Part shown: piece by piece, positions 284 to 33,036 of the stretch
Numbering within the stretch: the first letter of the stretch is position 1
How the letters are laid out: each line of letters starts with the position of its first letter
Source: an uncultured bacterium
GTDB lineage: Bacteria; Actinomycetota; Acidimicrobiia; Spongiisociales; UBA5794
Assembly (NCBI GenBank): GCA_963801165.1
Contig: CAWDDT010000009.1
Location: 64,001-128,000 of the forward strand
Direction: 5' to 3'
Length of the DNA stretch: 64,000 bases
Translations under genes and position numbers: made by a program
Notes under the pieces: generated by a model
The model's input: the letters and a program-made list of their open reading frames with translations, nothing else
Databases searched by the model: none
What the model was told of the DNA's origin: nothing

Positions 284-2077
284 CTACGACGCCGGCTCGC
301 TCTCGTACATAGCGTCGAGCCGGGCCGCGTTGTGTTGCTCCACCACCCTGCGTTTTAGCTTCAGAGATGGGGTCAGCTCGCCGGTGTCTACCTCAAACTC
401 GGACGGAAGGATGCTGACCTTTTTGATCGTCTCGAACGACGGCAGTTTTCGATTCACGTCGTCGACGGCAGACTCGATGAGTTTGATCATCTCGGGATGT
501 CGAGAAATGGAGGCCATATCGCCCGGCACGTTCTTGTCGTCCGCCCAGTGGGTGATGGCGTCGGGGTCGAGGGTGACCAATGCGACGCAGTACTTGCGAC
601 GATCACCGTGGACAATCGCACTCGAGATGTACGGAGATGCCGACGTTATGAGCCCTTCGAGCTTGGCCGGGGCGATGTATTTGCCCCCTGAGGTCTTGAT
701 CAGTTCCTTCTTGCGGTCGGTGATTCGCAGATAGCCGCGCTCGTCCAGTTCCCCGATGTCACCGGTATGCAACCAACCGTCGCGAAGTGTCGCCGCCGTC
801 TCGTCGGGGAGACCGTGGTACCCGCGCATGATCGCCCTACTCCGGATCAAGATCTCGCCGTCGTCGGCGATGCGCACATCCGTCTCGGGGATAGGCGGAC
901 CTACCGTGCCGAACCGGGGCGCTTCCGGCGGGTTCACGAACGTCGACGCCGATGACTCGGTCAGGCCGTAGCCCTCGAGGATGGTCATGCCCGCTGCGTC
1001 GAAGAACTCCGCCATGCTCAGCGACAGGGGCGCCGAACCGGAGATGAAGTACCGCACACGGCCCCCGAACCGGGCCCGCAGCTTGGAGAAGACGAGACGG
1101 TCGGCGAGAGCATGCTGGAGCGTTTGAAGCCGACCCTGTGGTTGTCCCCGCTGCCGTCGTCTTACCGTCTCCAGTCCGACGCCGAGCGCCCAGCGGAAGA
1201 TCACCCACCGTAGCCCGGCCTCGGCACGGACCGACGAGACCACGACGTTGTACACCTTCTCGAAGATGCGGGGAGCCGCAGCCATCAGCGTCGGGCGGAT
1301 CAAGGCGAGATTCTCGACGATCTTGTCGACCCGGCCGTCGATTGCGGTTTCGACGCCTGCGTCGATCATCAGCACCTCGATCACCTTGCCAAATGAGTGA
1401 GAAAGGGGCAGCCACAGGAAGTGGACGTCGTCGGAACGGATGATGTCCACCCGTGATCCCCCTTCCGCCGCGTACAGCCAGTTGTCGTGAGTGAGCTCGA
1501 CCCCTTTGGGTTTTCCCGTTGTGCCCGAGGTATAGATCAGGGTTGCCAGCTGGTGTGGGTCGATGCCATCGATGACGGCTTCGATGTCATCGTCAGTGCC
1601 GAGTTCGGCAAGTTGTCGAAACGACAACGCGTCTTCGGCGGTACCATCGATCACAACGAGCTTGATCGCCTGAGGTATGTCGGCGATCACTTCCCGGATC
1701 TTGGCCAGTTGCTCGGTGTTCTCGACGATCACGATGGTGGCGTTCGAGTCCGAGATGATGAAGGAGCACTCCTCGGCGACGCTCGATGGGTAGATGGCGG
1801 TCGTGGCGCCGCCGGCGGCGAGGATGCCGAGGTCGGCGACCACCCATTCGGCCCGGGTCGAGCACAGCAGTGCCACCCGGTCCTCGCTCACCACCCCGAG
1901 ACTCCTGAGACCGGCCGCTACCCGGAGCACCTGCCGGTATAGCTCGTGCCACGTCATCGATTGCCAGGCATCGCCGGCGGGGTAGCGGAGCGATATGGTT
2001 GCCGGTGTCTCGGTGGCGCGGATCCGTAGCAGATCGGGAATCGATCCGACCGACTGTCTTTGCAGGATGTGTCCCAT
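284..2077 (-). CDS. Long-chain fatty acid--CoA ligase (AMP-dependent synthetase)
   Basis: 'LIYTSGTTGKPKGV', 'EGYGLTE', 'GWLHTGDIG', 'ELTPSLKLKR'; start placed at ATG 2077 after AAGGAAC (ORF open to 2149). Confidence 0.92.
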   Translation of the reverse strand: MGHILQRQSVGSIPDLLRIRATETPATISLRYPAGDAWQSMTWHELYRQVLRVAAGLRSLGVVSEDRVALLCSTRAEWVVADLGILAAGGATTAIYPSSVAEECSFIISDSNATIVIVENTEQLAKIREVIADIPQAIKLVVIDGTAEDALSFRQLAELGTDDDIEAVIDGIDPHQLATLIYTSGTTGKPKGVELTHDNWLYAAEGGSRVDIIRSDDVHFLWLPLSHSFGKVIEVLMIDAGVETAIDGRVDKIVENLALIRPTLMAAAPRIFEKVYNVVVSSVRAEAGLRWVIFRWALGVGLETVRRRQRGQPQGRLQTLQHALADRLVFSKLRARFGGRVRYFISGSAPLSLSMAEFFDAAGMTILEGYGLTESSASTFVNPPEAPRFGTVGPPIPETDVRIADDGEILIRSRAIMRGYHGLPDETAATLRDGWLHTGDIGELDERGYLRITDRKKELIKTSGGKYIAPAKLEGLITSASPYISSAIVHGDRRKYCVALVTLDPDAITHWADDKNVPGDMASISRHPEMIKLIESAVDDVNRKLPSFETIKKVSILPSEFEVDTGELTPSLKLKRRVVEQHNAARLDAMYESEPAS

Positions 2078-6477: not shown

Positions 6478-8601
6478 ATGGTGTACAAGGAGAGGCAGGA
6501 GAGCCGGTCGGACCAGGGTGCATGGTCGGAGATCGGACGGGTTCCTGCCCGAGCCGGACGTGAGATCTACACCATTGCCGGGCGAGCATTCTGTGTGTCC
6601 GGCCGCAGCGGCAACATCACCGCGTTGGGCCCGCAAGGCTTCTTCAACGACGACACCCGGTTCCTCTCAGGCTTCCGGCTCCTGGTAGACGGTGTCGATC
6701 CCCAGGTCGTCGACGCCACTTCGGTGGACGCAGATGAGGCCGTGTTCTTCTTGAGGACCCGGGCGCCTGAGCAAGATCCGTATGACGAGCCAGGGCTGAT
6801 AATCCGCCGGCACCGCTACCAGGGTCCCACGGTGCATGAGGACATCATCATCAGAAACCGGAGCGGTCGGGCAACGGTGGTGACAGTCGAGCTGCAAATC
6901 GACGTTGACTTCGCCGATCTCCTGGATGTGCATCTCGCGGGACCGGTTGCTGATCGCCGGATCCGAGCTCATGCTTCGGATGGTGAGCTTGTCTTCAGCT
7001 ACAGCCGGGAGGGCTTCGAGCGGGAGACGAGCGTGGCGACGTCGGAGCCGGCGACCATCGAGCGTGAGAAGCTCAGTCTCGTGTGCAGCATCGATGCCGG
7101 GGAGCAGTGGCGAACTTGCGTCGACATCGTGCCGATCGTCAATGGGACACGTTTGCCCATCGAGCGAACCTGCCGCGGTGGTCGCCGCAGCGTCGCCGCC
7201 ACCGGCACGCCCCGCCAGATGGGCCGGATTCCCGAGTTGCGCTCATCGGCCGATGCCCTGGAGCACCTGTGGGAGCACAGCCTGGCCGATCTGGCCGCGC
7301 TCGAGATACGGATGGGTGGGGTGCGGGCATTTGCTGCCGGGATCCCCTGGTACGTAGCGCTGTTCGGGCGGGACAGCATCCTCACCTCGATCGAGGCAAC
7401 TCTGCTCGATCCCGACGTCGCGTTCGGTACCGCGCAACTGCTTGGGGAACTGCAGGGCACCAAGACGGACCCTGCGATGTCGGAAGAGCCGGGCAAGATC
7501 CTCCATGAGGTTCGGTTCGGCGAGCGGAGCTACCCGCACGACCAGATGAGCCGCTACTACGGGAGCGTGGACACCACGCCGTTGTGGTGCATGCAGCTGG
7601 ACAAGATGTATCGCTGGGGTGTTGAGCCTGCACGGATCGAGCAGTTGCTGCCCAACGTGAGGGCCGCGGCCGGTTGGATACGTCGGCAGCTCGAGGTCGG
7701 TGACGGCCTCCTGGTGTACGAAGGTGACAGCACCCGGCTCAGCAACCAGGGCTGGAAGGATTCGAGTGATTCCATGGTCGCGGCCGACGGCTCGCTGCTC
7801 GAGCCTCCGATCGCGGTTGTCGAAGTGCAGGGATATGCCGTTGCGGCGCTCCGGTCGGCAGCACGGATCGAGAACGACCTGGGGGATGCGTCGGTGTCCG
7901 GCCGGCTGCGGGCTGAGGCCGACGAGTTGCAGCAGCGTATCGAGGATCGGTTCTGGCGCTCCGAGCTGGGAACCTTCGACATGGCGCTCGGTAAGGGTGG
8001 CAGACCGGCCAACACGGTGTCGTCGAACGCCGGGCACCTGCTCTGGGCGGAGGCGGTGACAGCCGAGAAGGCGGAGGCGGTTGCCGGGTCGCTGTCCAGC
8101 GACGACCTCTGGTCGGGCTGGGGGATCCGCACACTCGCCGAGAGTCATGTCTCTTTTCACCCGCTGTCTTACCACCGCGGCAGCGTCTGGCCCCACGACA
8201 CCATGCTGGCGATCGCAGGTCTGATGTCGTACGGGTTCGTCGATCAGGCTCTCGAGGTGGCTGGTGGTCTGCTGGCGGCGGCGGCGCACTTCTCCTATGA
8301 GCTGCCGGAGCTGTTCTCGGGTTTCTCCCGCAACGAGGTATCTCAGCCGGTGGCGTACCCGACCAGCTCGTCCCCGCAGGCGTGGGCCGCTGCTGTTCCC
8401 ATCTATCTCACCGAGCAGTTGCTCGGGTTACGCCCGGACCTACCCGCGGGTCGGGTTGTCGTCGATCCGCACCTCCCCGACGGTGTCCAGCTGCAGCTCG
8501 ACGATCTTCGTCTCGGTGGGGGGACCCTCTCATTACGAGCGGAGGGGCGGAGCGTCCAGTTCTTCGAGGTCCCCACCGGCGTCGACGTCGTGGTCCGCTG
8601 A
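6478..8601 (+). CDS. Amylo-alpha-1,6-glucosidase / glycogen debranching family protein
   Basis: 'AGIPWYVALFGRDS', 'EEPGKILHEVR', 'NQGWKDS', 'YHRGSVWPHD', 'PQAWAAA'; TAGCCT 7 nt before the ATG suggests a leaderless start. Confidence 0.9.
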   Translation: MVYKERQESRSDQGAWSEIGRVPARAGREIYTIAGRAFCVSGRSGNITALGPQGFFNDDTRFLSGFRLLVDGVDPQVVDATSVDADEAVFFLRTRAPEQDPYDEPGLIIRRHRYQGPTVHEDIIIRNRSGRATVVTVELQIDVDFADLLDVHLAGPVADRRIRAHASDGELVFSYSREGFERETSVATSEPATIEREKLSLVCSIDAGEQWRTCVDIVPIVNGTRLPIERTCRGGRRSVAATGTPRQMGRIPELRSSADALEHLWEHSLADLAALEIRMGGVRAFAAGIPWYVALFGRDSILTSIEATLLDPDVAFGTAQLLGELQGTKTDPAMSEEPGKILHEVRFGERSYPHDQMSRYYGSVDTTPLWCMQLDKMYRWGVEPARIEQLLPNVRAAAGWIRRQLEVGDGLLVYEGDSTRLSNQGWKDSSDSMVAADGSLLEPPIAVVEVQGYAVAALRSAARIENDLGDASVSGRLRAEADELQQRIEDRFWRSELGTFDMALGKGGRPANTVSSNAGHLLWAEAVTAEKAEAVAGSLSSDDLWSGWGIRTLAESHVSFHPLSYHRGSVWPHDTMLAIAGLMSYGFVDQALEVAGGLLAAAAHFSYELPELFSGFSRNEVSQPVAYPTSSSPQAWAAAVPIYLTEQLLGLRPDLPAGRVVVDPHLPDGVQLQLDDLRLGGGTLSLRAEGRSVQFFEVPTGVDVVVR

Positions 8602-22161: not shown

Positions 22162-23921
22162 AGGAACGCCGCCATCTGGCCGCGGGTCACCGACTGTGTC
22201 GGGCAGAACCGGTCGTTGGCCGGCGGGTTGCAGCCCTTGGTGATCCCGGCGCCGGCCAGTAGCTCAATGCTCGTCTCGAAGACAGACCCGTTGTCGTCCA
22301 CGAATTGGGTACCGTCTGCGTCACCCGTGAGATCAAGCGCTCGCACCAGGAACGCCGCCATCTGGGCGCGGGTCACCGGGTCGGTGGGGCAGAAGTGGTC
22401 GTTGGCCGGCGGGTTGCAGCCTTTGGTGATCCCGTCCGCCGCCAGTGTGTTGATATTGGCGAAGTGGACCGAGGACCCCGTGTCGGTGAAGGGGTTGCTC
22501 GTCACCGCCGGCAGATCGAGTGCCCGAACCAGGAACGTGGCCATTTGTTCCCGGGTGACGACATCGTCCGGGCAGTACAGATCGTTGATCGGCGGGTTGC
22601 AGCCCTTGGTGATGCCCTGGTCGGCCAGCCAGCTGATGTCGTTCTCGAAGAGGTAGCCGGGCGGCACGTCCCGAAACCCGGAGGCGGGTAGATCATCTGT
22701 CGATCCGTACTCGTCAGCACCGATGTCGGCGGCTGCCCCGACCGGCCGATAGTTCCCATCGAAATCGTCGTCGACGAGCGTGACACCAGCGGCGGCGTCG
22801 ATGGCTCCGGTGGCCGCTGCGGTCAGGTGCAGATCGCCGCTCCCGAAAAACCAGCCGGCGGGCGCGTTGGTGACGTTGCCCTGGAGCGTCCCCGTGGCGC
22901 CGTCCCGCTGCCAGATCGGCCCATCGGTGAGATTGTTGGCGATCGTCGCCGTGGTCGATGAGAAGCGGTACTCGATGGTCCCCGACGGGAACGTGCCATT
23001 CTGGATGACCGTGTTGTGATAGATCGCGACGTCCCGTGCGTAGTTGACGGTGATGCCGATGTCGCCGGAGCCTTCCCGGTAGATCATGTTGTTGCGGATC
23101 TCACCGCCCTGGAAGTCATAGGTGCTCTCGCCGTCCCTGGAGTTGACGTCGGGCGCCGACAATCCGAGAGCGATGGACCGGTCGCACTCGATGAACAGGT
23201 TTCGTTCGACGACGGTGTTGATCGAGTTGCGCCACATCAGCACGGCCGGCCCGGCGAGCTGGCCCTCGGGAGCGCGAATGTTGCGGAACTCGTTGTCCCT
23301 GATGATCCACCCCGACCCGGCGAGCACGTCGACGCCGTTGGTGTAGTCGCTGCGAGCCCGGTCGGTGTACTCGAACAGAGAGCACTCGACGACGCCGTCG
23401 TCTGCATAGGGTCCCGGGTTGCCCGCCGTCGATCCCTTGACGAATTGCTCACCGGCGTCGACCAGGTGAAGGTTGTACAGATGCACTCCGTCGGCGTCAT
23501 CCTCCCCGTGGATCTGGATCAGGTGGTAGTAGGCGTCACGCAGCGTGAGGTCGGCGATCAGCACTTCCTTGGCGTCGTAGACCGCCATCACGTGTGGCAC
23601 GTTGCCGTAACTGGTGTTCGACATGCCCCGTCCGCGCAGGACGACCGCATCGCGGTTGCCGCTCGCCGAGCGGATTGTCACGTTGGATACGCCACGGATG
23701 TTGAGCGTGTTGGTCAGGTCGTAGGTGCCGTCTGCGATGAGGATGGTGGTGCCGGAGGTGAGGTTGTTCACCGCGTCCTGGAGATCGGCGGTGGTGGCGA
23801 CGGTCACCACGTTTCCCGTCGCCGATGACAGCGGGCCACACGCGGAAGCCGCCCCAGCTTGCGGCGAAGGGAAGGTGAAGAGGGCGGTGGCGACCAGGAT
23901 CAGTGGAAGGGATCGTTTCAT
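22143..23921 (-). CDS. Secreted right-handed beta-helix protein with three C-terminal SLH-like repeats
   Basis: Signal peptide, 'ILIADGTY', Asn-ladder repeats, 'DIGADEY', three 'GITKGCNPPxND.F/YCP..VTR.QMA.FL.RAL' units. Confidence 0.85.
   Translation of the reverse strand: MKRSLPLILVATALFTFPSPQAGAASACGPLSSATGNVVTVATTADLQDAVNNLTSGTTILIADGTYDLTNTLNIRGVSNVTIRSASGNRDAVVLRGRGMSNTSYGNVPHVMAVYDAKEVLIADLTLRDAYYHLIQIHGEDDADGVHLYNLHLVDAGEQFVKGSTAGNPGPYADDGVVECSLFEYTDRARSDYTNGVDVLAGSGWIIRDNEFRNIRAPEGQLAGPAVLMWRNSINTVVERNLFIECDRSIALGLSAPDVNSRDGESTYDFQGGEIRNNMIYREGSGDIGITVNYARDVAIYHNTVIQNGTFPSGTIEYRFSSTTATIANNLTDGPIWQRDGATGTLQGNVTNAPAGWFFGSGDLHLTAAATGAIDAAAGVTLVDDDFDGNYRPVGAAADIGADEYGSTDDLPASGFRDVPPGYLFENDISWLADQGITKGCNPPINDLYCPDDVVTREQMATFLVRALDLPAVTSNPFTDTGSSVHFANINTLAADGITKGCNPPANDHFCPTDPVTRAQMAAFLVRALDLTGDADGTQFVDDNGSVFETSIELLAGAGITKGCNPPANDRFCPTQSVTRGQMAAFLHRALG
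22146..22680 (-). repeat. Three ~185-bp in-frame SLH-like repeats
   Basis: GGCGGGTTGCAGCCYTTGGTGAT at 22222, 22408 and 22591. Confidence 0.85.
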
Positions 23922-24014
23922 AGGCACATTCTGGCTTGGCCGGGTTTCCTACCGGAATCCGACGGCGTGTCCCGGTGCGACGCTCTACGATCCGCTCCGG
24001 TCTGCGAGGAGCCA

Positions 24015-26069
24015 ATGCCCGATTACCCGGTGACACGACGAGACGAGACGGTCGACGACTACCACGGCATGGCGGTTGCCGACCCTTACCGATGGCTGGA
24101 GGCGACTGACTCCGCCGAGACGCTCGCCTGGGTGGATGCGCAAAACGAGGTCACGTTCGCTCATCTCGATGCCATCCCGCAGCGGTCCGCGTTGCGGCAC
24201 CGGTTCGAGCAACTGTGGAACTTCCCACGGGAGTCGACGCCGATGCGCCGGGGAGACTGGTATTTCTTCACCCGGAACGACGGTCTGCAACCTCAGCCGA
24301 TCCTCTATAAACGTCCAGCGGCCGGCGGTGATCCGGTCGTCGTGCTCGACCCCAACACCATGTCCGACGACGGTACCGTCGCCCTGATGACTCTGTCGTT
24401 CACCAGCGACGGTGGGCTGCTGGCATATACCGTTGCCGAGGCAGGCAGCGACTGGCAGGTAGCCCGGGTGCTCGATACCGAGACCGGGGAGCACCTCCCC
24501 GACGAGCTGCAACGCATCAAGTTCACGACCCTGGCGTGGACCCCGGATGGGGAGGCGTTCTACTACGCCCGGTTCCCGGAGCCCGGCGAGTTCCCCGGCG
24601 CCTCGCCGTCGACCAACCAGCGTGTCCACCTTCACCGGCTCAGCGACGACCAGACCGAGGACGAACTCGTATACGCCCGTCCGGACGAACCGGACTTCGG
24701 CTTTCAACCCATTGTCACGGATGACGGTCGGCTGCTGGTGCTTCATGTCTGGCACGGAACCGACACGCGTAACCGCCTCTACTACCGGGAGGAGGGCGAC
24801 GGCGGGGTGTTTGTCGAGCTTCTCGACGACTTCGATGCCAAGTATCAACTCATTGATCACGTCGACGGGTGGCTCTACCTCCTGACCGACAGGGACGCAC
24901 CGAGGGGCAAGGTCATCGCCATCCCGCTCGCCCGGCCCACCGTCGAGAATTGGCGTGAGATCGTTCCTGAGGGAAAGGACACCATGGAGTTCGCCGCCGT
25001 CGCCGGCGGGCGGCTCGTCACCTTCGTGCTGCGTGACGCCAGCCACGCGGTCTCGGTCTACAGCCTCAACGGGGAGCCTGTCGCATCGCTTGATCTCCCT
25101 GCACTCGGCAGCGTCACCGAGTTTGCCGGAAAGCCCGGCCACAACGAGTTCTTCATCAGCTTCGAGTCGTTTGTCCTTCCCCCAACTGTGCTCCGTTACG
25201 ACCTGGTCGGCGGTTCGCTCGCTGCGGTCGCCGGGGCCGATGCCAGGATCGATCCCGATCGGTATGTCACGAAGCGGATTTGGGCGAGGTCGGCAGACGG
25301 CACCCCCATCCCGATGTTCGTCAGCCACCGCACAGATGTTGTTCTCGACGGCACCAACCCGACCATTCTGTTCGGCTACGGCGGTTTCGATATCTCCATG
25401 ACCCCGATGTACGCCCCCGATCGGCTCGGGTTCGTCGAAGCAGGCGGCGTCTTCGCCCTGGCCAACCTCCGGGGCGGCGGCGAGTATGGCAGGAAATGGC
25501 ATGAAGCGGGCATGTTCGGCGCCAAGCAGAATGTCTTCGACGACTGTATCGCTGCCGCCGAGCACCTGATCGCTTCCGGCTATACGTCAAACGAGCATCT
25601 CGGCATCTACGGTCGATCCAACGGTGGCCTGCTGGTGACGGCGTGTCTGGTGCAGCGGCCCGATCTGTTCGGCGCCGCGGTGGCGATGGTGCCGGTCACC
25701 GACATGCTCCGCTATCACCGTTTCACTGCCGGCCGCTATTGGACGGCGGAATGGGGCAGTGCCGACGACGGTCCTATGCAATTTGAATACCTGCATGCCT
25801 ATTCGCCGTTGCACAACGTGACTCCGGCGACCTATCCGCCGACGCTGGTCACCACCGGTGACACCGACGACAGGGTGGTGCCGCTTCACGCCTACAAGTT
25901 CATTGCCACGCTCCAGGCCGCCGTCGGCGGCTCCGGACCGGCCCTGCTTCGTGTCGATCGGCGCGCCGGTCACGGTCTCGGCAAGCCCATCTCGAAGCTC
26001 ATAGACGAGGCAGCCGACATCTACGCGTTTTTCCTCCACCACCTGGCAAAGGCGCCGGGGGCTAGTTAG
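24015..26069 (+). CDS. Prolyl oligopeptidase (S9A)
   Basis: 'DPYRWLE', 'GYGGF', 'NLRGGGEYG', 'GRSNGGLL', 'DDRVVPLHAYKF', 'AGHG'. Confidence 0.95.
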   Translation: MPDYPVTRRDETVDDYHGMAVADPYRWLEATDSAETLAWVDAQNEVTFAHLDAIPQRSALRHRFEQLWNFPRESTPMRRGDWYFFTRNDGLQPQPILYKRPAAGGDPVVVLDPNTMSDDGTVALMTLSFTSDGGLLAYTVAEAGSDWQVARVLDTETGEHLPDELQRIKFTTLAWTPDGEAFYYARFPEPGEFPGASPSTNQRVHLHRLSDDQTEDELVYARPDEPDFGFQPIVTDDGRLLVLHVWHGTDTRNRLYYREEGDGGVFVELLDDFDAKYQLIDHVDGWLYLLTDRDAPRGKVIAIPLARPTVENWREIVPEGKDTMEFAAVAGGRLVTFVLRDASHAVSVYSLNGEPVASLDLPALGSVTEFAGKPGHNEFFISFESFVLPPTVLRYDLVGGSLAAVAGADARIDPDRYVTKRIWARSADGTPIPMFVSHRTDVVLDGTNPTILFGYGGFDISMTPMYAPDRLGFVEAGGVFALANLRGGGEYGRKWHEAGMFGAKQNVFDDCIAAAEHLIASGYTSNEHLGIYGRSNGGLLVTACLVQRPDLFGAAVAMVPVTDMLRYHRFTAGRYWTAEWGSADDGPMQFEYLHAYSPLHNVTPATYPPTLVTTGDTDDRVVPLHAYKFIATLQAAVGGSGPALLRVDRRAGHGLGKPISKLIDEAADIYAFFLHHLAKAPGAS

Positions 26070-26150
26070 CACGGAGCAGCGGAAGATGCCACCATATAGC
26101 CCCGGCCACCGGTTCAGCGGTGGCGAGTCCCTGTCGATGTGAGGGAGTAC

Positions 26151-27518
26151 ATGGCTCTGACCCGTGCCAATCAGTCGCGTGCCCTGTGGTGGACCATCGC
26201 CGGTGTTGTCGCCGTGGCTCTGCTTGCCCTGGGAGCGTTTCTGTTCGTCAACTCGTTCACGACGGGACGGGCGCTCGACAAGGCCGAGACGTTGCACCGG
26301 GCCGACCTCGCTCTTGCTGCTCAGGACGTGGCGATCAAGTCGATCGGGCAGCTCGTCCTCGTTTCCCAGGATGCCGCACTCCAGGTGGCGACCCCCGCCG
26401 ATGTCGAGGCCGCCGCAGGTGAGGCAGATCGAGCCGTTTCCGACCTTGGTGAGCGGTTCGAGGCCCTGGATTCCGGTCTGGTGGACAAGCTCACCCCCGC
26501 TTTCGACGCCTGGCAGGCGGCTGCCCTGGACGTGACCTCGGCGGCGTCGTCCGGCGTTCCGCAACAGGCAGCTGACGCGTTGACGGGATCCCTGGCGCAG
26601 GCTTCAGACCGCTTCGTCAACGAGCTCTCTATTGAGCGTGACTCCGCGGCTCAGGCTGTGTCTGACACCACCGATAGCGTGAGCTCTCTGACCCGCCTCG
26701 TTGGTTTTCTCACGCTTTTCCTCATTCCCCTGGTGGCGGTCTTCGTCTACTGGCTGATTGCCCGCCGCCAGCTCCGCGACGCTACGGCCCATCTCGATGC
26801 CCGCATTGAGGCAGAAAAGACGTTGGGCCGAGCCAAGGATCAGTTCATCGCCAACTTCTCGGAAGAGTTACGGACACCACTCACCTCGATCTACGGCTTC
26901 TCCGAGGTGCTTCTCGACAAGGGGTTCATCGACCCGCAGGCGGGTGATCTGGTCGGTCTGATCAACCAGGAGTCCGGCGAGCTGGCGCGTATGGTTGAAG
27001 ACCTGCTGGTGGCTGCCCACGATGAGAGCGCCCCGCTCCCAATCGGTCTCGAGACCCTCGACATGGATGAGCAGATCCGCGAAGTGATTGCGCCGTTCGA
27101 GAAGCGTGGGCGTGCCGTTGGTGGGACATGGGGTGGTGGTGCGGTGCGGGCCGACGCGCTCCGGGTAAGGCAGATCCTACGCAACCTCATCACCAACGCC
27201 ATCGAGCACGGTGGTCCCGACATCAGGATCTTCGGAGACGCGGCGGGCAGTAAGTATGTCGTGTCGGTGGAGGACAACGGGCCTGGTGTCCCCGAGGAGA
27301 TCGTCAATCAGTTGTTTGCCCGTTTTGTGAGCGGTGGGGAGCCTTTGACAACGGGAACACCCGGTCTGGGTCTTGCGGTGGCACGACTGCTGGCCCGGGC
27401 GATGGGTGGATCGCTCGAATATCAGCGAGTCGCCAACCGCACAGCGTTTGTCGTCTCCCTGCCGCTGGCGACGCAGGCCGACGACGATGCGGGCCCGGCT
27501 CCAGCGTCTGACCGATGA
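26151..27518 (+). CDS. Two-TM sensor histidine kinase-like protein with H-box His replaced by Glu (pseudokinase candidate)
   Basis: 'FIANFSEELRTPLTSIYG' versus canonical SHELRTPL; N box 'QILRNLITNA', G1 'EDNGPG', G2 'GTPGLGLAVAR'. Confidence 0.85.
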   Translation: MALTRANQSRALWWTIAGVVAVALLALGAFLFVNSFTTGRALDKAETLHRADLALAAQDVAIKSIGQLVLVSQDAALQVATPADVEAAAGEADRAVSDLGERFEALDSGLVDKLTPAFDAWQAAALDVTSAASSGVPQQAADALTGSLAQASDRFVNELSIERDSAAQAVSDTTDSVSSLTRLVGFLTLFLIPLVAVFVYWLIARRQLRDATAHLDARIEAEKTLGRAKDQFIANFSEELRTPLTSIYGFSEVLLDKGFIDPQAGDLVGLINQESGELARMVEDLLVAAHDESAPLPIGLETLDMDEQIREVIAPFEKRGRAVGGTWGGGAVRADALRVRQILRNLITNAIEHGGPDIRIFGDAAGSKYVVSVEDNGPGVPEEIVNQLFARFVSGGEPLTTGTPGLGLAVARLLARAMGGSLEYQRVANRTAFVVSLPLATQADDDAGPAPASDR

Positions 27519-29758
27519 TGGCCGGTCTTCGTCGTATCGCGACTGCCTTTGCCGCAGCAGCCCTTGTGGCTGCGTTGCCCGGTGCCGCGGTAGCCGATTT
27601 CGGCAACGGTCCCTCGCTCGAGCCCATTCCGGATCAGACCGTTGCCGAGCTGAGCCAGATGCGGGTGACGGTCGAAGCAAGCGACCCCGATCTACCCAAT
27701 GACGTGCTCCGCTTCTCTCTGGCCGGAGGCCCGCTCGGTGCAGTCATGGCGCCGGGCGGAACCATCACGTGGACCCCTTCGGAGGCCAACGGTCCTGGTA
27801 CGTATACGATCGTCGCCCGCGTGGCGGATGCGTCGGGGCAGACCGACCAGGAGTCCTTTCAGGTGACGGTCACCGAGGTGAACACCGCACCCAAAATCGG
27901 ATCCATTCCGGATCAGGCGCTCGGACCGGGCGACGAGCTCGAGCTTGAAATCCCGGTTACCGATGTCGACCAGCCGGCCAACTCGTTCACGTTCGCGGCA
28001 ACCGGGCTTCCCCCGGGAACGAGCATCGACAGCACTACGGGGAAGATCAGCGGGACTGTGTCGAGCGTTGGGGACGCCACCTCGGGTACCGCCGTTATCA
28101 CCGTGACCGACGACGGCAACCCTCCCGCCCGGGCGACGCGTTCCTTCTCGTGGTTGGTAACGGCCGGCAACCATGCTCCGACCATGCAGCCGCTCGGCGA
28201 GCAAACGGTTCTCGAGGACGGTGTGGTCCGGTTCACGGTTTCTGCCCTGGACGCCGACCCGGGTGACGCGCTCATCTACTGGCTGGCAGAGGGTGTCGAC
28301 CCGGTGCCGGCCGGCGCCACGATCGACGAGAAGGGTGGGGTGTTCACCTGGAAACCGACGCAGGACCAGTACGGGGCTACCTACCGGTTCAACGTGATCG
28401 TGTCGGATTCGGGGTCGCCGCGACTATCCGATACCCAGCTGATCACGGTCGTCCTTCCTGAGTACAACACGCCCCCCGAGATCGGCGCCGTTTCCGACCA
28501 GCATTCGGCCGAGGGCGACAGCGTGCTGGTGAGAGTGACCGCAACCGACGTGGAACGCAACGCCCTCACCTTTTCGGCGGCGGACCTCCCTGCAGGGCTC
28601 GAGATCGATCCGGCCACAGGCGTGATCAGCGGCGAAGTCGGATACGAGGCCGGGGCGCGATCGCCGTATAGCGTCGTAGTGACGGTCACCGATGATGGGC
28701 GGCCTGCGGCGTCCAGTCACGCTTCGTTCAGCTGGGCGATCGACGAGACCAACCGGCCGCCGGTGGTCACGCCGGTGACGGTGGCGGCGATGGTGGGGAG
28801 AACGACACCTATCGAACTCGACGTATCCGACCCCGATGGCGACCCGCTCACGTTCACGATCGTCGACCAGCCGAGCAACGGCAGGCTCAGCGGAGTGCCG
28901 CCCACACTGACCTACCTGAGCGATGGGGGCACGAGCGACGCGTTCACCTTCACCGTCACCGACGGTGAGTTCGAGGTTGAGGGGACCGTGCTGATCGAGA
29001 TCAGAGAGAGCAATGCTCCGCCGGAGCCGGGTGTCGACGAGTACCAGCTGACGAGCGGCGAGACGCTTCAGGTCGACGCCCCCGGGGTGTTGGGCAATGA
29101 CCACGATCCCGACAGCGAGCAGCTGACCGCGGTGCTGGTGGCCCGACCCGACCACGGTGAGCTGACCCTAAACGCCGACGGTTCTTTCACCTATACCCCC
29201 GAAGCCGGCTACGTCGGGGCCGACAAGTTCACCTATGCCGCCGTCGACGAGCTCGGGGAGGAGTCGACGGCAACCGTCGTCCTGACCGTGGTGGCCGCAC
29301 AGACACCGGGCGAGGTCGAGCCCCCGGCAGGATCGCGGGCGGCGGTCGTTGCCGCCACTGCGGCGGCGTGGCGGCCGCCGGCCGAGGAGGACGGGGCTTT
29401 GCTCCCGCGGGTTGGCCGCGCCGTGACCGACGCCTTTCACAGTGGCGTTGCCGCGATTCCGCAGATCGCCTATCCGTTGTTGTTGCTGATCGCAGCACTG
29501 GTGCTGGCACTCACCGTCGGCAAGGTTTCGCTGCTGCCGGTGGGCAACGGGCGCACCCAGGGTGAAGGGACGGTGGACTGGTACGACCCGGCCCGCGGTT
29601 TCGGCCGCATCTTGTCCGATGACCGCGGTGACGAGGTCTTCGTCCACGCCGGCTCGTTCGAGAAGGGGGAGACCCCGGTACCGGGCCAGCGGGTCGAGTT
29701 CATCGCCGCCACCATCCGCGACCGCAAGATGGCCCTCAAAGCCTGGCAGGCGTCTTGA
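27515..29758 (+). CDS. Secreted Ig/cadherin-repeat protein with TM helix and C-terminal cold-shock domain
   Basis: Signal peptide; about six NxxP-led Ig/cadherin-like repeats ('GLPPGTSIDSTTGKISG', 'GVLGNDHDPD', 'DGSFTYTP'); TM at ~29465-29520; CSD 'GTVDWYDPARGFGRI...EVFVHAGSF...GQRVEF'. Confidence 0.85.
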   Translation: MMAGLRRIATAFAAAALVAALPGAAVADFGNGPSLEPIPDQTVAELSQMRVTVEASDPDLPNDVLRFSLAGGPLGAVMAPGGTITWTPSEANGPGTYTIVARVADASGQTDQESFQVTVTEVNTAPKIGSIPDQALGPGDELELEIPVTDVDQPANSFTFAATGLPPGTSIDSTTGKISGTVSSVGDATSGTAVITVTDDGNPPARATRSFSWLVTAGNHAPTMQPLGEQTVLEDGVVRFTVSALDADPGDALIYWLAEGVDPVPAGATIDEKGGVFTWKPTQDQYGATYRFNVIVSDSGSPRLSDTQLITVVLPEYNTPPEIGAVSDQHSAEGDSVLVRVTATDVERNALTFSAADLPAGLEIDPATGVISGEVGYEAGARSPYSVVVTVTDDGRPAASSHASFSWAIDETNRPPVVTPVTVAAMVGRTTPIELDVSDPDGDPLTFTIVDQPSNGRLSGVPPTLTYLSDGGTSDAFTFTVTDGEFEVEGTVLIEIRESNAPPEPGVDEYQLTSGETLQVDAPGVLGNDHDPDSEQLTAVLVARPDHGELTLNADGSFTYTPEAGYVGADKFTYAAVDELGEESTATVVLTVVAAQTPGEVEPPAGSRAAVVAATAAAWRPPAEEDGALLPRVGRAVTDAFHSGVAAIPQIAYPLLLLIAALVLALTVGKVSLLPVGNGRTQGEGTVDWYDPARGFGRILSDDRGDEVFVHAGSFEKGETPVPGQRVEFIAATIRDRKMALKAWQAS

Positions 29759-30944
29759 CCATTCCCAGCTGGTGGACATCGATCCTCCCGGTGCGGAACC
29801 CGGCCTCGCAGTACGCCAGGTAGTAGCGCCACGTTCGCCGGAACCGCTCGTCGAGGCCCAGGCTGCGCAATGCCGGCCAGGAGTTTTCGAAGCGCTCCCG
29901 CCAGGTACGCAGCGTCCGTGCGTATGAGGCGGCGAACGAGTCGACAGACCTGACGGTCAAACCTCGCTCTCCGGCGAGGTCGCGCAGCTTTTCCACCGAT
30001 GGGAGGGCGCCACCCGGGAAGATGTGCTTGCTGATGAAGTCGTCGCGGCCGAGCAGTGAGTCGAAGAGCCGGTTGTCGATGGTGATGGCCTGCATGGCGA
30101 CCGCCCCGTTGGGGCGGAGCCGGGCCTGGATCTGGTCGAACAGCGTGGGCCAGAGATCTGCGGGAATCGACTCGATCATCTCGATTGTCACGATCTTGTC
30201 ATACAGCCCCGTCTCATCGCGGAAGTCCTGGAGCCTGATTTCTGTCCGGTCGGCGACACCGGCCCTGGCGAGCCGTTCCCTGGCGTAGGTCGCCTGCTCA
30301 CCGCTGAGAGTGAGCCCGGTCACCGACGCGCCCATCTCGGTGGCCGCGTATTCCGCGAAGCCTCCCCAGCCGCAGCCGATCTCGAGCACTCGGTCGCCCG
30401 GCCCAACCCCGGCGAGCTCGGCGAGACGCTGGTACTTGGTCAACTGCCCCTGGGTGAGATCGTCGTCTTCCGACCGGAACACCGCCGATGAGTACGTCAT
30501 AGTGGAGTCGAGCCAGGCGGTGTAGAAGTCGTTGCCGAGGTCGTAGTGGTCGCCGATGCTGGGGATCTCGGAACGGCGCCGTACCGTCAATCGTTGCCAT
30601 AGCCGGCGGGCGGCTGTGATGACACGGCCGGGATTGCGGTCCCTCACACGGGCGTCGAGGTTCCTCGCCATCGCTTCCAGGGTCGCTGCCAGGTCGGGGG
30701 TGTCCCACAGACCGGCCATGTAGGCCTCGGCGAACCCGACGCCGCCGCCTGTGGCGAGCCGCCACAAGAACCGTATCGGACGGTAGACGGTGACGCGCCC
30801 GCTTGGCCCCGGCTCGGCGCCATGTCCTACCAGGATGGCCGAGCCGGGTAGTTCGACGGTGATCTCGCCGACTCGAATCCGTCGTAGCAGCGCTCCGTAG
30901 CCGGCTCGCACCGGTTTCATCGTGATCGACGCAAAGACGCTCAC
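29736..30944 (-). CDS. Cyclopropane-fatty-acyl-phospholipid synthase family methyltransferase (UfaM/UfaA1-like)
   Basis: 'HYDLGNDFY', 'MTYSSA', 'LEIGCGWG', 'IFPGG', 'YYLAYCEAGF'; GTG start overlaps the DUF1365 stop. Confidence 0.92.
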   Translation of the reverse strand: MSVFASITMKPVRAGYGALLRRIRVGEITVELPGSAILVGHGAEPGPSGRVTVYRPIRFLWRLATGGGVGFAEAYMAGLWDTPDLAATLEAMARNLDARVRDRNPGRVITAARRLWQRLTVRRRSEIPSIGDHYDLGNDFYTAWLDSTMTYSSAVFRSEDDDLTQGQLTKYQRLAELAGVGPGDRVLEIGCGWGGFAEYAATEMGASVTGLTLSGEQATYARERLARAGVADRTEIRLQDFRDETGLYDKIVTIEMIESIPADLWPTLFDQIQARLRPNGAVAMQAITIDNRLFDSLLGRDDFISKHIFPGGALPSVEKLRDLAGERGLTVRSVDSFAASYARTLRTWRERFENSWPALRSLGLDERFRRTWRYYLAYCEAGFRTGRIDVHQLGMVKTPARL

Positions 30945-31714
30945 GGCTGGGCCACCATGCTCTCGATCCGCACCGGTACCTGCGGTGGTTCCGGGACCCG
31001 GTGATACCGGCCGCCTTTCATCAGGATACGCAACGCATGCCAGTGGATGGCCGAGATCACCTTCAGTGTGAGCAAGGGGTGAGTGAAGAAGGCGGTGAGC
31101 AGGTTGCGGTCGGTGAATTCGTGCCGGGCCCCCACCATCGTTGCCGTTAGTCGATCTTCCGTTGGCGTGGTGTAGCCGATCGAGATCGAGAAGCGCTCCC
31201 CCGGGGGGCGGAGGGTGAACGTATAGCCACCCTCCCGGTCGAAGAACGGGGAGACGTGGAACTCCTTGCCGAAGCTGTGCCGGTGGGGTTCGCGTCCTTC
31301 GACCGGGATCAGGTGACTGTGGCTGTGCCCGAACGTGTTGTGGATCTCGTAGAGGACGGCGTCCAGGGAGCCGTCGGCATCGCGACAGAACCAGACCGTC
31401 AGGGGGTTGAACTGGTAGCCGAGCATGCGCGGATAGAGGAGTACTTCGATCCGCCCTCCGGGAAGATCTATACCGGCGAGTCGCAGCTGCTCGTGTATCC
31501 ACATTCGCATGCTGGTGCCGTCTCTGGCTCCGTGATCGCGATCGTGCACCGACAGGAGGTTCCAGCGGTTGTGGGAGAACCAGCGGCTGCCGTCGGCGAG
31601 CTCCTCGAGCTCGTCCAGGTCGACGAGCAACGAGAAGGTGCGGTAGGCCAGTTCGTGCCGGAACGGCGCCTTGCGGCGATGGGCGACCCGGCCGACAAAG
31701 ATGCCGCTATTCAT
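30941..31714 (-). CDS. DUF1365 protein (UfaO-like)
   Basis: 'HRR..P..H...Y', 'PRMLGYQFNPL', 'EIHNTFG', 'KEFHVSPF', 'IHWHALR'. Confidence 0.9.
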   Translation of the reverse strand: MNSGIFVGRVAHRRKAPFRHELAYRTFSLLVDLDELEELADGSRWFSHNRWNLLSVHDRDHGARDGTSMRMWIHEQLRLAGIDLPGGRIEVLLYPRMLGYQFNPLTVWFCRDADGSLDAVLYEIHNTFGHSHSHLIPVEGREPHRHSFGKEFHVSPFFDREGGYTFTLRPPGERFSISIGYTTPTEDRLTATMVGARHEFTDRNLLTAFFTHPLLTLKVISAIHWHALRILMKGGRYHRVPEPPQVPVRIESMVAQP

Positions 31715-33036
31715 GCCGTCACCAGGGATCGCCTGCGCAACGCAACGGACGCGGCCGGGCTGCGGCGCACGATTCGATCTGCCCACGGGGCCGCTGCCCC
31801 GAGCTGGGCGGCGACGGTGAGTCCGGCCTGGAGCCCGTCCTCATGGAAGCCGTATCCGCAGTAGGCGCCGGCGAACCAGGTGCGACGTTCCCCCTGGATC
31901 GTGCCGAGATCACGCTGGGCTCGGGCCGACGCGGCATCGAATTGGGGATGAGAGAACCAGACCTCGTCAACAACGGTGTCCGGGTGTGGCTCGATCGCCG
32001 GGTTCAGCGAAACGAAGACTTGACGATCCCCAGGCAACGACTGAAGTCGATTCATCCAGTAGGTGACAGCGACGGCGCGGTCGGCGTCACCGGTCACGGC
32101 GCCGGCTACGTTCCACGAGGCCCACGCCCGGCGTCGACGTGGCATGAGCCGCTCGTCGCTGTGCACCACCGCCCGGTTGGGGGCGTACCGGAACGCGCCG
32201 ATGATGCGTCGCTCGGATGCGGTGGCCGCGGCACCCAGGATGCGCGTCGTCGTGTCGGCATGGGTGGCGAACACCACGTGGTCGTATTCCCGGGTGTCGC
32301 CGCGGGCGGCGGTCAAGAGCACTGCATCAGGGCGACGGTCTACTGCGACTACCGGCGTGTCGAGCAGGATCTCGTCGACGTGGCCCAACGCTTTGTCTAC
32401 GTACGTCCGGCTGCCTCCCGCCACGGTGCGCCATTGGGGGCGATCGGTGAGGCGGAGCAGACCGTGGTTGGCGAGGAAGCTGAGAAAGGTCTGTGCGGGC
32501 ATGTCCGAGACGTCCTCACCGGCTCCGGACCAGACGGCGGCGGCCAGCGGGAGCAGGTAATGCGAGGCGAAGGCGCTCGGGTAGCGGCGGTGGGTCAGGT
32601 ACTCGCCGATGGAGAGCCCGTCGGGCACCTCACCGGCTTCGAGACGCTCGTGTTCGGTTCGGAACTCCCTGATGGCCCGGAGCAGCGACCACATGCGGGG
32701 TCGCACCAGGTTCGATTTGTCGGCAAGGATTCCGGCGAGGCTCCCCGCGTACTCGAGGCCGGTGGCCGGGTCGCTTACCGAGAACGACATGCTGCTCGGC
32801 TTGGTCTCGATGCCGAGTGTGCGGAAGAACTCGACCAGGTTCGGGTAGTTGCGGTCGTTGTAGACGATGAATCCGGTGTCGACGGGCAGGTGGTAGCCAC
32901 CCATATCTACGTCGATGGTTCTGGTGTGACCGCCCGGTCGATTCTCCGCCTCGTAGACGGTGACCCGATGTTCCCGGCTGATTGCCCAGGCGGCTCCGAT
33001 TCCGGTGATCCCGGAGCCGACGACTGCGATGTTCAT
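31711..33036 (-). CDS. FAD-dependent oxidoreductase (UfaD/Rv0449c-like)
   Basis: 'IAVVGSGITG', 'GGHTRT', 'VDTGFIVYN..NYPN', 'AWASWN', 'TYWMN.LQ', 'GYGFHEDG'. Confidence 0.92.
   Translation of the reverse strand: MNIAVVGSGITGIGAAWAISREHRVTVYEAENRPGGHTRTIDVDMGGYHLPVDTGFIVYNDRNYPNLVEFFRTLGIETKPSSMSFSVSDPATGLEYAGSLAGILADKSNLVRPRMWSLLRAIREFRTEHERLEAGEVPDGLSIGEYLTHRRYPSAFASHYLLPLAAAVWSGAGEDVSDMPAQTFLSFLANHGLLRLTDRPQWRTVAGGSRTYVDKALGHVDEILLDTPVVAVDRRPDAVLLTAARGDTREYDHVVFATHADTTTRILGAAATASERRIIGAFRYAPNRAVVHSDERLMPRRRRAWASWNVAGAVTGDADRAVAVTYWMNRLQSLPGDRQVFVSLNPAIEPHPDTVVDEVWFSHPQFDAASARAQRDLGTIQGERRTWFAGAYCGYGFHEDGLQAGLTVAAQLGAAAPWADRIVRRSPAASVALRRRSLVTA

Follow-up and report, generated by a model that had tools for sequence, protein, structure and literature searches.

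What is a cold-shock domain doing at the C-terminal end of a cell-surface protein? Cold-shock domains (CSDs) are known as small soluble chaperones of RNA and single-stranded DNA (ssDNA), or as modules of soluble eukaryotic RNA-binding proteins, and the receivers in which bacterial two-component systems are known to end bind DNA, act as enzymes or bind proteins. The 64,000-nt stretch of DNA analysed here (hereafter "the window") raises this question through a gene that joins an Ig-repeat ectodomain, a transmembrane (TM) helix and a CSD in one frame. The authors of an initial annotation knew of no characterised protein with such an architecture, and we likewise found none in the published literature. 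The host organisms are uncultured Acidimicrobiia represented by metagenome-assembled genomes (MAGs), and the family is small.

Architecture and Predicted Topology

The gene is a single unbroken frame on the forward strand, and its parts are as follows.

27515..29758, + strand: whole CSD gene, 747 aa (P0001), Ig-repeat ectodomain, TM helix and predicted cytoplasmic CSD (Pfam, AlphaFold2)
27515..27595, + strand: signal peptide, aa 1-27, with RR n-region, hydrophobic core and AVA/DF site
27611..29293, + strand: six Ig-like beta-sandwich domains (Pfam, NCBIfam, model secondary structure)
29294..29464, + strand: stalk and juxtamembrane segment, aa 594-650, low-confidence model and least conserved part
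29465..29563, + strand: TM helix (aa 651-669) and predicted cytoplasmic linker (aa 670-683), most conserved segment
29564..29755, + strand: CSD, aa 684-747 (Pfam CSD, five-stranded beta-barrel in AlphaFold2)

Pfam matched Big_9 (7.6e-44) and He_PIG (5.5e-40), each in four stretches of the protein, together with Cadherin_4, Cadherin_5 and Cadherin_3, and the Ig domains run as four of He_PIG type followed by two that are Big_9/cadherin-like. The last of them matches the NCBIfam tandem-95 repeat NF012211 (102 bits, cut-off 90), and a partial NCBIfam match to the BapA/LapF family lies below cut-off. In the full-length AlphaFold2 model, a signal-peptide helix at aa 6-18 precedes six beta-sandwiches (aa ~33-593), a helix (aa 652-668) and a five-stranded barrel (aa 681-745), and hydropathy finds just two hydrophobic segments, the signal peptide (aa 8-30) and aa 643-677. 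Thirteen orthologues have N-termini of this signal-peptide type too. Pfam, hydropathy and AlphaFold2 agree with the initial annotation, which had read the protein as a signal peptide, about six Ig/cadherin-like repeats, a TM helix and a CSD, and its coordinates fit as well, the TM at 29465-29520 corresponding to aa 651-669 and the CSD at 29561-29755 to aa 683-747.

The product is predicted to be a type I single-pass membrane protein, N-out/C-in. Because it has a signal peptide, an Ig-type ectodomain and a single TM helix, the CSD is placed in the cytoplasm; the C-terminus, which the annotation had wanted checked for a position outside the cell, is thus on the inner side by prediction, and the positive-inside signal is weak, with one K/R before the TM versus two after it. 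Two other classes were rejected: a sortase-type protein with a C-terminal sorting signal, as no LPXTG precedes the TM and 78 residues of linker and folded domain follow it in place of a short tail, and a one-component regulator of the ToxR/CadC type, as the parts come in the opposite order and a CSD replaces the winged helix.

Sequence identity differs by segment, with 69-93% in the TM and linker, 57-83% in the Ig domains, 47-87% in the CSD and 31-59% in the stalk. The stalk segment holds a conserved 'W-x-P-P' motif and, next to the membrane on its outer side, an amphipathic helix; the TM-region helix spans residues 36-59 of a separate tail model (AlphaFold2), and the linker carries the motif 'L-T-x-G-[KR]-[VI]-S-x-x-P'. 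Of 17 sequences, 15 retain a Pro six residues after the TM, which the L051/L024 clade lacks. Judged from these alignments, the conservation of TM and linker is unusual for a mere anchor.

Distribution of the Fusion

The Ig-TM-CSD fusion recurs in about 35 loci of relatives from four families. Within the genus, the TM and CSD close open frames in 12 of 14 congeners, the exceptions being a decayed remnant (G013) and a frame broken to 340 aa (G005), and they do so in other genera as well (670-2325 aa overall); protein length varies widely with repeat number, from 750 to 2300 aa. Five further clusters (746-918 aa) carry the same Pfam set. Of ten representatives scanned, nine share this tail region and belong to the He_PIG/Big_9 proteins; the Pfam CSD model scores seven of the nine at E<=0.001. 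The annotation had also raised the case of homologues in which the CSD is a separate gene; the domain is fused in 5/5 clusters and in every full-model match, the G013 remnant excepted. Another study yielded a salt-marsh contig (8599 nt) that covers 26139-29758 without a gap and differs by 52 substitutions, and the TM-CSD junction is also crossed by contigs from two additional runs.

The gene lies in a cassette, described below, whose observed range is limited to four families within a single Acidimicrobiia order: it turned up in 24 of the 301 genomes sampled from that order and in none of the 400 sampled elsewhere in the phylum.

A Sensor Kinase and a Single-Domain Receiver

Upstream of the CSD gene, the window contains the following features.

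23859..26069, + strand: prolyl-oligopeptidase/oligopeptidase B-like gene (S9 family), longest open reading frame, the true start probably being later
26139..27518, + strand: sensor histidine-kinase-like gene, 459 aa (Pfam, hydropathy)
26862..26864, + strand: Glu242 codon, at the phospho-accepting His position of the H-box (alignments)
27515..27518, + strand: ATGA overlap of the CSD-gene start with the kinase stop (translational coupling)

The kinase has two TM segments (aa 13-43 and 180-210) flanking an extracytoplasmic helical region of ~140 aa, and its C-terminal part matches HisKA (aa 232-293, 49.5 bits) and HATPase_c (aa 339-444, 78.6 bits) in Pfam. In 30 of 31 assessable related loci, made up of 14/15 in a first set, 12/12 in a second set and 4/4 metagenome loci, the gene immediately before the CSD gene on the same strand encodes an orthologous kinase, and the same 4-nt overlap is found in eight further loci (L015, L017, L018, L019, L020, L023, L027 and L028). 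Beyond the genus, this kinase and a receiver were the sole repeat neighbours of the CSD gene seen. This kinase linkage, the chief clue to the protein, and the receiver that follows in most lineages were absent from the initial annotation.

The receiver is a single-domain protein (Pfam Response_reg, 98.7 bits). In 13 of 32 loci, which represent families f1, f8 and f11 of the four, its gene is the next one downstream of the CSD gene on the same strand, and the two genes frequently overlap. It lies upstream of the kinase at L090 (f12), is convergent at L095, and was not found within the fetched stretch in 17 of the 32. No response regulator adjoins the kinase and CSD genes in the window, nor was a clear orthologue of the receiver found elsewhere in genome G000 or five relatives, where the best matches reach 37-42% identity (39% in G000).

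Of the 30 orthologous loci examined, 23 encode a kinase with the phospho-acceptor His. The window kinase has Glu242 in its place, the H-box reading 'NFSEELRTPL' versus 'N[IV]SHELRTPL' in relatives, and retains the ATP-binding N, G1 and G2 boxes. The seven His-less kinases carry E (window and L048), R (L050), T (L015), Y (L049) or a degenerate box (L051 and L024) and form two well-supported clades (support 100/99 and 100/100); none of these loci has an adjacent receiver. On the sequences compared, the loss of His is recent and clade-specific. Since the receiver is not adjacent and the His is lost in the window's clade, the pair there would either work without phosphotransfer or include a kinase on its way out. 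In the metagenome contig L048 (98-99% identical), the kinase gene has a 40-nt frameshifting deletion and a premature stop next to an intact CSD gene, which hints that the kinase may be dispensable in this clade; four other runs did not show the deletion.

The Cold-Shock Domain and Its Nucleic-Acid Face

Pfam assigns aa 684-738 to CSD PF00313 (31.6 bits, cut-off 27, E 1.6e-7), and the same domain scores 36.3 bits in a six-frame genome search. A phmmer search of the PDB matched 30 solved CSD sequences at E<=0.01, among them the AtGRP2 CSD (7.4e-7) and Mycobacterium tuberculosis CspB (9.9e-7). The AlphaFold2 tail model has strands at 69-79, 84-89, 95-99, 114-122 and 125-133 (tail numbering), with CSD pLDDT >90, and by Foldseek it matches Escherichia coli CspA (2l15/1mjc, TM-score 0.87/0.83, rmsd 1.7 A) as well as the CSDs of YB-1 and Lin28, so that the C-terminus models as the CSD/OB barrel that the annotation had expected. 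Genome G000 and three of four congeners searched (G002, G006 and G007) yielded no CspA-type protein of normal score; the top CSD match in each of these four genomes is the tethered domain.

The motifs of CspA-type proteins are KGFGFI (RNP1) and VFVHF (RNP2). Both counterparts named in the annotation, 'RGFGRI' and 'VFVHA', are present, and measured against the CspA-type motifs its observation of two replaced aromatics holds: the second RNP1 aromatic is R698 and the last RNP2 aromatic is A712, and Phe occurs at neither position in any of 17 family members (one Trp at the former, no aromatic at the latter). As Phe is absent in 17/17, the replacements are a family trait and not a local change. The position of Y690 is aromatic in 16/17, that of F709 in 16/17 and that of F696 in 10/17, H711 is kept in 11/17, and the W689 position is aromatic in just 5/17; the window CSD has kept the GFG turn, the VFVH strand and an aromatic beside the W11 position. 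Within the genus, conservation is strong across the beta4-beta5 region 'RVEF.A..I.GRR.ALKVW'. We infer that the domain may bind single-stranded RNA or DNA; its nucleic-acid face is partly eroded, and it may bind protein instead.

Comparison with Known Systems

The window CSD shares the fold of the CspA family and passes the PF00313 cut-off. CspA-family proteins are small and soluble, whereas this CSD is the tail of a 747-aa protein predicted to be of type I membrane topology, and in contrast to them its family never has Phe at the two RNP1/RNP2 positions.

Several sensor kinases work with accessory membrane proteins, such as YycH/YycI with WalK, LiaF with LiaS and LpqB with MtrB. QseG-QseE is reported as a further pair of this kind (PMC12691602). 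Like such proteins, the CSD protein has a large extracytoplasmic part and is encoded in the kinase operon, and its conserved TM segment suggests a helix-helix contact with the kinase. The operons of accessory proteins encode a DNA-binding response regulator, whereas the receiver linked to the CSD cassette has no output domain, and, unlike accessory proteins, the CSD protein carries the only candidate output of its cassette. To our knowledge, none of YycH/YycI, LiaF, LpqB and QseG has a cytoplasmic nucleic-acid-binding domain.

DivL of Caulobacter has Tyr in place of the His, as does the kinase of a sister species (L049). RocA of group A Streptococcus is reported to be a pseudo-histidine kinase (PMC7028121). 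Like these proteins, the window kinase has DHp/CA and the ATP-binding boxes without a phospho-acceptor His, and unlike RocA and DivL, its proposed partner is the CSD protein and not another kinase.

ToxR and CadC are single-pass proteins with an N-terminal cytoplasmic winged-helix DNA-binding domain, a C-terminal periplasmic sensor and no signal peptide. Like the CSD protein, they cross the membrane once, with a sensing part outside and a domain of nucleic-acid-binding type inside, but they act alone, whereas the CSD protein sits in a kinase cassette and has the opposite topology. CSD-DUF1294 proteins have a CSD N-terminal to a small multi-pass membrane domain, with no ectodomain or signal peptide; on this description their CSD is attached to the membrane as in the window protein. 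We know of no kinase linkage for them, and our literature search found no paper on them. Lastly, adhesins of the Bap/BapA/LapF type and tandem-95 adhesins have He_PIG/Big_9/cadherin-like repeats in common with the window protein. They are secreted or anchored to the wall or outer membrane and end outside the cell, whereas the window protein ends in a domain predicted to be cytoplasmic.

Possible Roles of the CSD Protein

We give about an even chance to the reading that the CSD protein is both a co-sensor and the membrane-tethered CSD output of the kinase module. The cassette would run from a two-TM sensor histidine kinase through the Ig-repeat/TM/CSD protein to the single-domain receiver. The ectodomain would bind some ligand at the cell surface, and the TM helix and linker would couple to the TM bundle of the kinase through a putative contact. 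The CSD, ~14 residues from the predicted inner membrane face, would bind ssRNA or ssDNA at the membrane (the receiver being a less likely partner) under the control of the kinase and, putatively, of the receiver. In the window's clade, the module would be a pseudokinase-CSD pair with the ATP-binding boxes kept.

The protein could instead be a surface adhesin or envelope repeat protein whose CSD is a cytoplasmic stopper or anchor, with a kinase that merely shares the operon without direct interplay and might, for example, regulate adhesin expression through an unlinked regulator. We regard this as unlikely. Its ectodomain of large-adhesin type (He_PIG, Big_9 and cadherin-like, with the partial BapA/LapF match below cut-off), a repeat number that varies as widely as in adhesins (750 to 2300 aa) and the partly eroded aromatic face of the CSD all fit. 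However, a folded, conserved CSD and a TM and linker more conserved than the ectodomain are unexpected for a passive anchor, and the overlapping kinase-CSD gene pair persists in four families while other neighbours change.

Single-domain receivers work by protein contacts, and it is conceivable, if quite improbable, that the CSD now serves as a protein-docking module that binds the receiver or the kinase DHp/CA and so recruits the receiver to a membrane complex. The receiver gene directly after the CSD gene in 13/32 loci, the two canonical aromatic positions that are never Phe and the conserved beta4-beta5 region would agree with docking; against it, the best-kept CSD residues (Y690, F709, the GFG turn and H711) belong to the nucleic-acid face, the CSD holds 47-87% identity in a clade without an adjacent receiver or phospho-acceptor His, and no REC-CSD or kinase-CSD fusion was found among 10 multi-domain CSD proteins scanned.

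Regulated proteolysis, an idea of the initial annotation in which surface contact leads to cleavage in or near the membrane and sets free a soluble, Csp-like CSD that acts as an RNA chaperone or regulator, seems decidedly improbable to us, and none of our results points to it in particular. In its favour, the genus appears to be without a free CspA-type protein, a gap that such a freed CSD would close. A speculative variant has the prolyl oligopeptidase of the upstream gene cutting after the linker Pro found in 15/17 sequences. The peptidase gene (NCBIfam oligopeptidase B 1.8e-51, below the cut-off of that model) belongs to a cluster (c2) found in 11 loci of the genus, in the same direction as the kinase gene and immediately before it, but this cluster is absent from the clustered loci outside the genus (L026-L032), and the Pro itself is missing in the L051/L024 clade. 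Prolyl oligopeptidases, moreover, cut short peptides and not folded proteins, a preference that speaks against the variant. The neighbours scanned or clustered included no intramembrane protease, be it a site-2 protease, a rhomboid or another type, and no internal start codon able to yield a free CSD is conserved.

Finally, the probability of a chance fusion, lost stop codon or misassembly of an adhesin gene and a separate csp gene is practically nil; nothing was found in favour of such an origin, and it is ruled out by the about 35 loci in four families and, as to misassembly, by the gapless salt-marsh contig and the two runs that bridge the junction.

Implications

If the CSD is the membrane-tethered output of the kinase module, one could go further and propose a two-component pathway whose output is a membrane-fixed CSD, neither a transcription factor nor an enzyme, a proposal that we consider unlikely as a whole. 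Surface contact through the ectodomain and kinase would set the state of the receiver, or of the ATP-bound pseudokinase in the His-less clade, and this state would decide whether the tethered CSD captures specific mRNAs or ssDNA or lets them go. If true, post-transcriptional control would be localised at the membrane, in a genus apparently without a free CspA-type protein. We found no published description of the kinase-CSD-receiver cassette, and its gene order suggests an undescribed wiring of a surface signal to an output of nucleic-acid-binding type. A CSD tail on a surface Ig-repeat protein, encoded between a kinase and an output-less receiver, would be new wiring with the function proposed here. 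Within one genus the cassette also forms a natural series, of a His kinase with receiver, a His kinase without adjacent receiver and a His-less pseudokinase, which could show how such a module changes once phosphotransfer is lost.

Architecture and Fold of the Cold-Shock Domain Protein

Genes of the locus (window coordinates)
23859..26069 (+), S9 prolyl-oligopeptidase-like peptidase
26139..27518 (+), sensor histidine-kinase-like protein with HisKA and HATPase_c
27515..29758 (+), Ig-repeat protein with a C-terminal cold-shock domain (CSD)
29736..31502 (-), cyclopropane-fatty-acid-synthase-like ORF (CMAS 5.4e-80)

The CSD gene is a single open frame of 747 aa, in which Pfam assigned four stretches to Big_9, four to He_PIG and others to Cadherin_4, Cadherin_5 and Cadherin_3, and placed a cold-shock domain (PF00313) at aa 684-738 with 31.6 bits against a cut-off of 27. 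Hydropathy revealed two hydrophobic segments only, one at aa 643-677 and one at aa 8-30, the latter signal-peptide-like with AVA|DF. A full-length AlphaFold2 model, built on a 6-row alignment (mean pLDDT 73), predicted six beta-sandwich domains from aa ~33 to 593, a disordered stalk after these Ig domains, then a helix (652-668) and a barrel of five strands (681-745), and this barrel reached pLDDT >90 in a separate model of aa 613-747 (19-row alignment). The top Foldseek match was E. coli CspA (2l15, 1mjc; TM-score 0.87, 0.83 on target; rmsd 1.7 A), with YB-1, Lin28 and other CSDs ranked lower. By sequence only, the last 70 residues matched 30 solved CSD sequences at E<=0.01, the best being the AtGRP2 CSD (7.4e-7) and M. 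tuberculosis CspB (9.9e-7). The initial annotation had proposed a surface Ig/cadherin-repeat protein fused through a TM helix to a CSD; the positions it gave for the helix and the CSD are correct, and the motifs 'RGFGRI' and 'VFVHA' that it named are present. The modelled fold and the profile match assign the C-terminal domain to the CSD family, with nucleic-acid binding as a putative function. In orthologues of ~1000 aa (P0006; L017-L024, L027) the signal peptide is followed by an additional N-terminal stretch bearing the motif 'RDEF..IS[YF].G.DGS..W'; this stretch is missing from the window's ~750-aa clade.

Recurrence and Distribution of the Fusion

When aa 625-747 only were searched among proteins of 410-1308 aa, five more clusters (746-918 aa) were found with the same Pfam set, alignable end to end and 53-85% identical in the tail, i.e., the TM helix plus CSD end of the protein. 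Six-frame searches located the TM helix and CSD in 12 of 14 congeners and also in other genera, at the C-terminus of open frames 670-2325 aa long; in G013 the match is just a decayed remnant, and in G005 the frame is broken to 340 aa. A HMMER search of 1.84 billion representatives gave 749 matches at E<=0.001; among the best 150, those that also spanned the TM part were, where scanned, He_PIG/Big_9/cadherin proteins (nine of 10) or else short fragments of these, and the Pfam CSD model scored seven of the nine at E<=0.001. Furthermore, an independent salt-marsh contig of 8599 nt covers 26139-29758 with 52 substitutions and no gap, and the TM-CSD junction is bridged by contigs from two further runs. 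Recurrence in relatives and in independent assemblies thus rules out a chance fusion or misassembly, an explanation to which we attach virtually no probability.

All that is left in congener G013 (L025, G013:C304; tail match at 6497-6766) is a TM+CSD remnant interrupted by a TAG in frame, and the peptidase gene is followed by the next cluster without a kinase gene in between; in this congener the cassette has apparently degenerated. At the G005 locus (L016, G005:C4, 4796-8434), the kinase is split into two overlapping ORFs and the Ig-repeat/CSD gene into ORFs of 405 and 308 aa, which could be real pseudogenes or assembly frameshift errors. Many of the best CSD matches in the representative search (e.g., P0009, P0024, P0151) contain 2-7 tandem CSDs, and some occur in other contexts (cNMP-binding plus HEAT, alpha-kinase, AAA ATPase); these proteins are unrelated to the membrane family.

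Full-length tail matches to the profile of tail alignment A2 were obtained in 24 of the 301 genomes sampled from the order, source genome G000 included, with 11/74 in family f1, 2/8 in f8, 8/14 in f11 and 2/22 in f12, and none among the genomes sampled from the other eight families. The class sample yielded such matches in only 7 of 301 genomes (again including G000), all inside that order; the remaining matches were ordinary small CSDs, which is also all that was matched in three genomes of this tally flagged unpublished (G238, G279, G300). Among 400 other genomes sampled from the phylum, the A2 profile matched none at E<=1e-18. These figures describe genome samples, and absence means no match in the genomes searched. 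The relatives seen are all MAGs, and the DNA runs containing the stretch are labelled soil and salt-marsh metagenomes; no RNA run was listed as containing it. A single-tail query for related loci matched only an unrelated CSD in a Brevundimonas MAG, and a query with another alignment (A1) gave metagenome loci.

A Kinase Gene Coupled to the CSD Gene

The main new finding is the genomic context. Directly 5′ of the CSD gene lies the kinase gene, whose product has two TM segments flanking a ~140-aa extracytoplasmic region by hydropathy, and whose stop codon shares ATGA with the start of the CSD gene. We fetched loci around TM+CSD matches in a first set of 18, a second set of 14 from other genera and families, and four metagenome loci. 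An orthologous kinase gene immediately precedes the CSD gene on its strand in 14 of the 15 assessable first-set loci (three are cut by contig ends, and the lone exception is the decayed G013 remnant), in all 12 assessable second-set loci and in 4/4 metagenome loci, and the 4-nt overlap was seen again in eight related loci. Loci of the genus are arranged as peptidase, kinase, CSD gene and then a convergent cyclopropane-fatty-acid-synthase cluster, and in distant loci the kinase-CSD pair alone is retained.

At their 3′ ends (29736-29758) the CSD gene and the convergent cyclopropane-fatty-acid-synthase-like ORF share 23 nt, so that the ORFs as listed leave no space for a terminator between them. 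A promoter/terminator scan of 23500-30200 returned no promoter-like site and one terminator-like site, inside the peptidase gene and below the shuffle mean. The convergent cluster (29736-33036, minus strand), kept downstream within the genus as clusters c3, c5 and c4 in L015-L024, consists of three genes, a CMAS-type methyltransferase and two more which, by eye, may be DUF1365-like and amine-oxidase/FAD-oxidoreductase-like. Upstream of the cassette, at a distance of 2-4 kb, two congeners encode a further histidine kinase, a paralogue (L017, 2-820, plus strand; L019, 10739-12001, minus strand), which is 38% identical over the catalytic half, keeps the His and forms the outgroup of the kinase tree.

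A third gene, encoding a single-domain response-regulator receiver (Pfam Response_reg, 98.7 bits in L028), lies directly 3′ of the CSD gene on the same strand, often overlapping it, in 13 of 32 loci (L026, L028-L031, L089, L091, L094, L098-L102) belonging to families f1, f8 and f11; elsewhere it is found upstream of the kinase in L090 (family f12) and convergent in L095. This linkage points to a three-gene cassette as the widespread form, made up of the kinase, the Ig-repeat/TM/CSD protein and an output-less receiver. Searches of G000, G001, G007, G009, G014 and G018 gave no clear receiver orthologue elsewhere in these genomes, the best candidates being 37-42% identical and indistinguishable from unrelated receivers. 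L089 (G263:C39, 599-2095) shows three receiver-domain matches in a row by the CSD-gene 3′ end, two co-directional and one on the opposite strand.

Loss of the Phospho-Acceptor Histidine

The H-box of the window kinase reads 'NFSEELRTPL', with Glu242 at the position of the relatives' His, so that the kinase of this lineage would not autophosphorylate on the canonical residue.

H-box residue in kinase orthologues
L048 (same species): E
L050: R
L015: T
L049: Y
L051 and L024: degenerate box
Remaining 23 of the orthologues examined: H

All orthologues examined keep the N, G1 and G2 boxes. A maximum-likelihood tree resolved two well-supported His-less clades (100/99, 100/100) nested among His-containing kinases of the genus, and none of the seven His-less loci has an adjacent receiver. 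The pairing of His-less kinase and CSD gene has been maintained across several speciations, at 64-68% identity. Counter-evidence to this persistence in the window's own lineage is the broken kinase of L048 (98-99% identical DNA), in which a 40-nt deletion at about 3168 (~ window 27196-27235) removes the N-box and shifts the frame, so that the reading frame closes after 383 aa, about 190 nt short of the CSD gene, which is itself intact. The deletion, not seen in contigs of four other runs covering the site, may be peculiar to one population or result from faulty assembly. In this genome the kinase is a histidine-kinase homologue without the defining His. It resembles the pseudokinase RocA of group A Streptococcus (PMC7028121). 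Another pseudokinase that it resembles is DivL.

A Membrane-Tethered Output?

What the analysis establishes is the architecture and fold of the protein, its predicted topology, the order and coupling of the genes, their distribution and the His loss. We give about an even chance to the CSD protein acting both as co-sensor of the kinase cassette and as its membrane-tethered output. In this reading, contact with the kinase would be made through the TM helix and linker, the CSD may bind ssRNA or ssDNA at the membrane, and gating would fall to the receiver or, where the kinase lacks the His, to a pseudokinase that binds ATP. The best-conserved segment of the protein is the TM helix together with a 14-residue linker (L-T-x-G-[KR]-[VI]-S-x-x-P).

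Identity to five homologues
TM helix and linker: 69-93%
Ig domains: 57-83%
CSD: 47-87%
Stalk: 31-59%

Such conservation in a single-pass protein argues for specific helix-helix contacts, for which the TM bundle of the kinase is the obvious candidate partner. Complex prediction of the full-length kinase with aa 613-747 (17-row alignments each) scored 0.00 and was counted neither way.

Aromatic residues are kept in 16 of 17 members both at Y690, next to the W11 position, and at F709, the first RNP2 aromatic; F696 is kept in 10/17 and H711 in 11/17, and the W689 position is aromatic in 5/17. R698, at the second RNP1 aromatic position, is never Phe in the 17 members and is basic in eight, and A712, at the last RNP2 aromatic position, is never aromatic. 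This pattern suggests that the nucleic-acid face is partly retained and partly remodelled. In G000, which is 98% complete, a whole-genome CSD search found no CspA-type protein of normal score; the one other match is a degenerate CSD of 29.5 bits directly downstream of an rpmB-like gene (L002, G000:C10:113856-117041, ORF 1477..1866, minus strand), compared with 36.3 bits for the tethered CSD. The tethered CSD is also the best CSD match of the genome in three of four congeners searched (G002, G006, G007), and G008 has an additional two-CSD ORF on a small contig.

An adhesin in which the CSD is an inert cytoplasmic stopper is unlikely. Somewhat less probable still is that the CSD now serves as a docking module for the receiver or kinase. 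In 10 long CSD proteins of the representative search, Pfam showed the CSD in contexts of the multi-CSD, cNMP/HEAT, alpha-kinase and AAA types, and in none of them together with a receiver or kinase domain. Proteolytic release of the CSD is the least likely of these readings: it is weakly suggested by the linker Pro, conserved in 15/17, and by the peptidase gene that lies upstream in the genus, whereas no intramembrane protease was seen among the neighbours scanned or clustered and the clustered loci from outside the genus showed no such peptidase. The sole in-frame candidate just upstream for an internal start producing a free CSD, a GTG at V676 (29540-29542), was rejected because it has no obvious ribosome-binding site and its column is not conserved in relatives.

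For the co-sensor and tethered-output reading, the closest functional analogies are the accessory membrane proteins of sensor kinases and membrane regulators of the ToxR/CadC type, from which the present cassette differs in topology, in domain type and in having no DNA-binding regulator. Full-text literature, supplements excluded, gave no description of a membrane-anchored CSD of such architecture, NCBIfam has no model naming the family, and the ESM Atlas returned no usable look-alike of aa 630-747. We rate as new a membrane-tethered CSD component within a two- or three-component signalling cassette.
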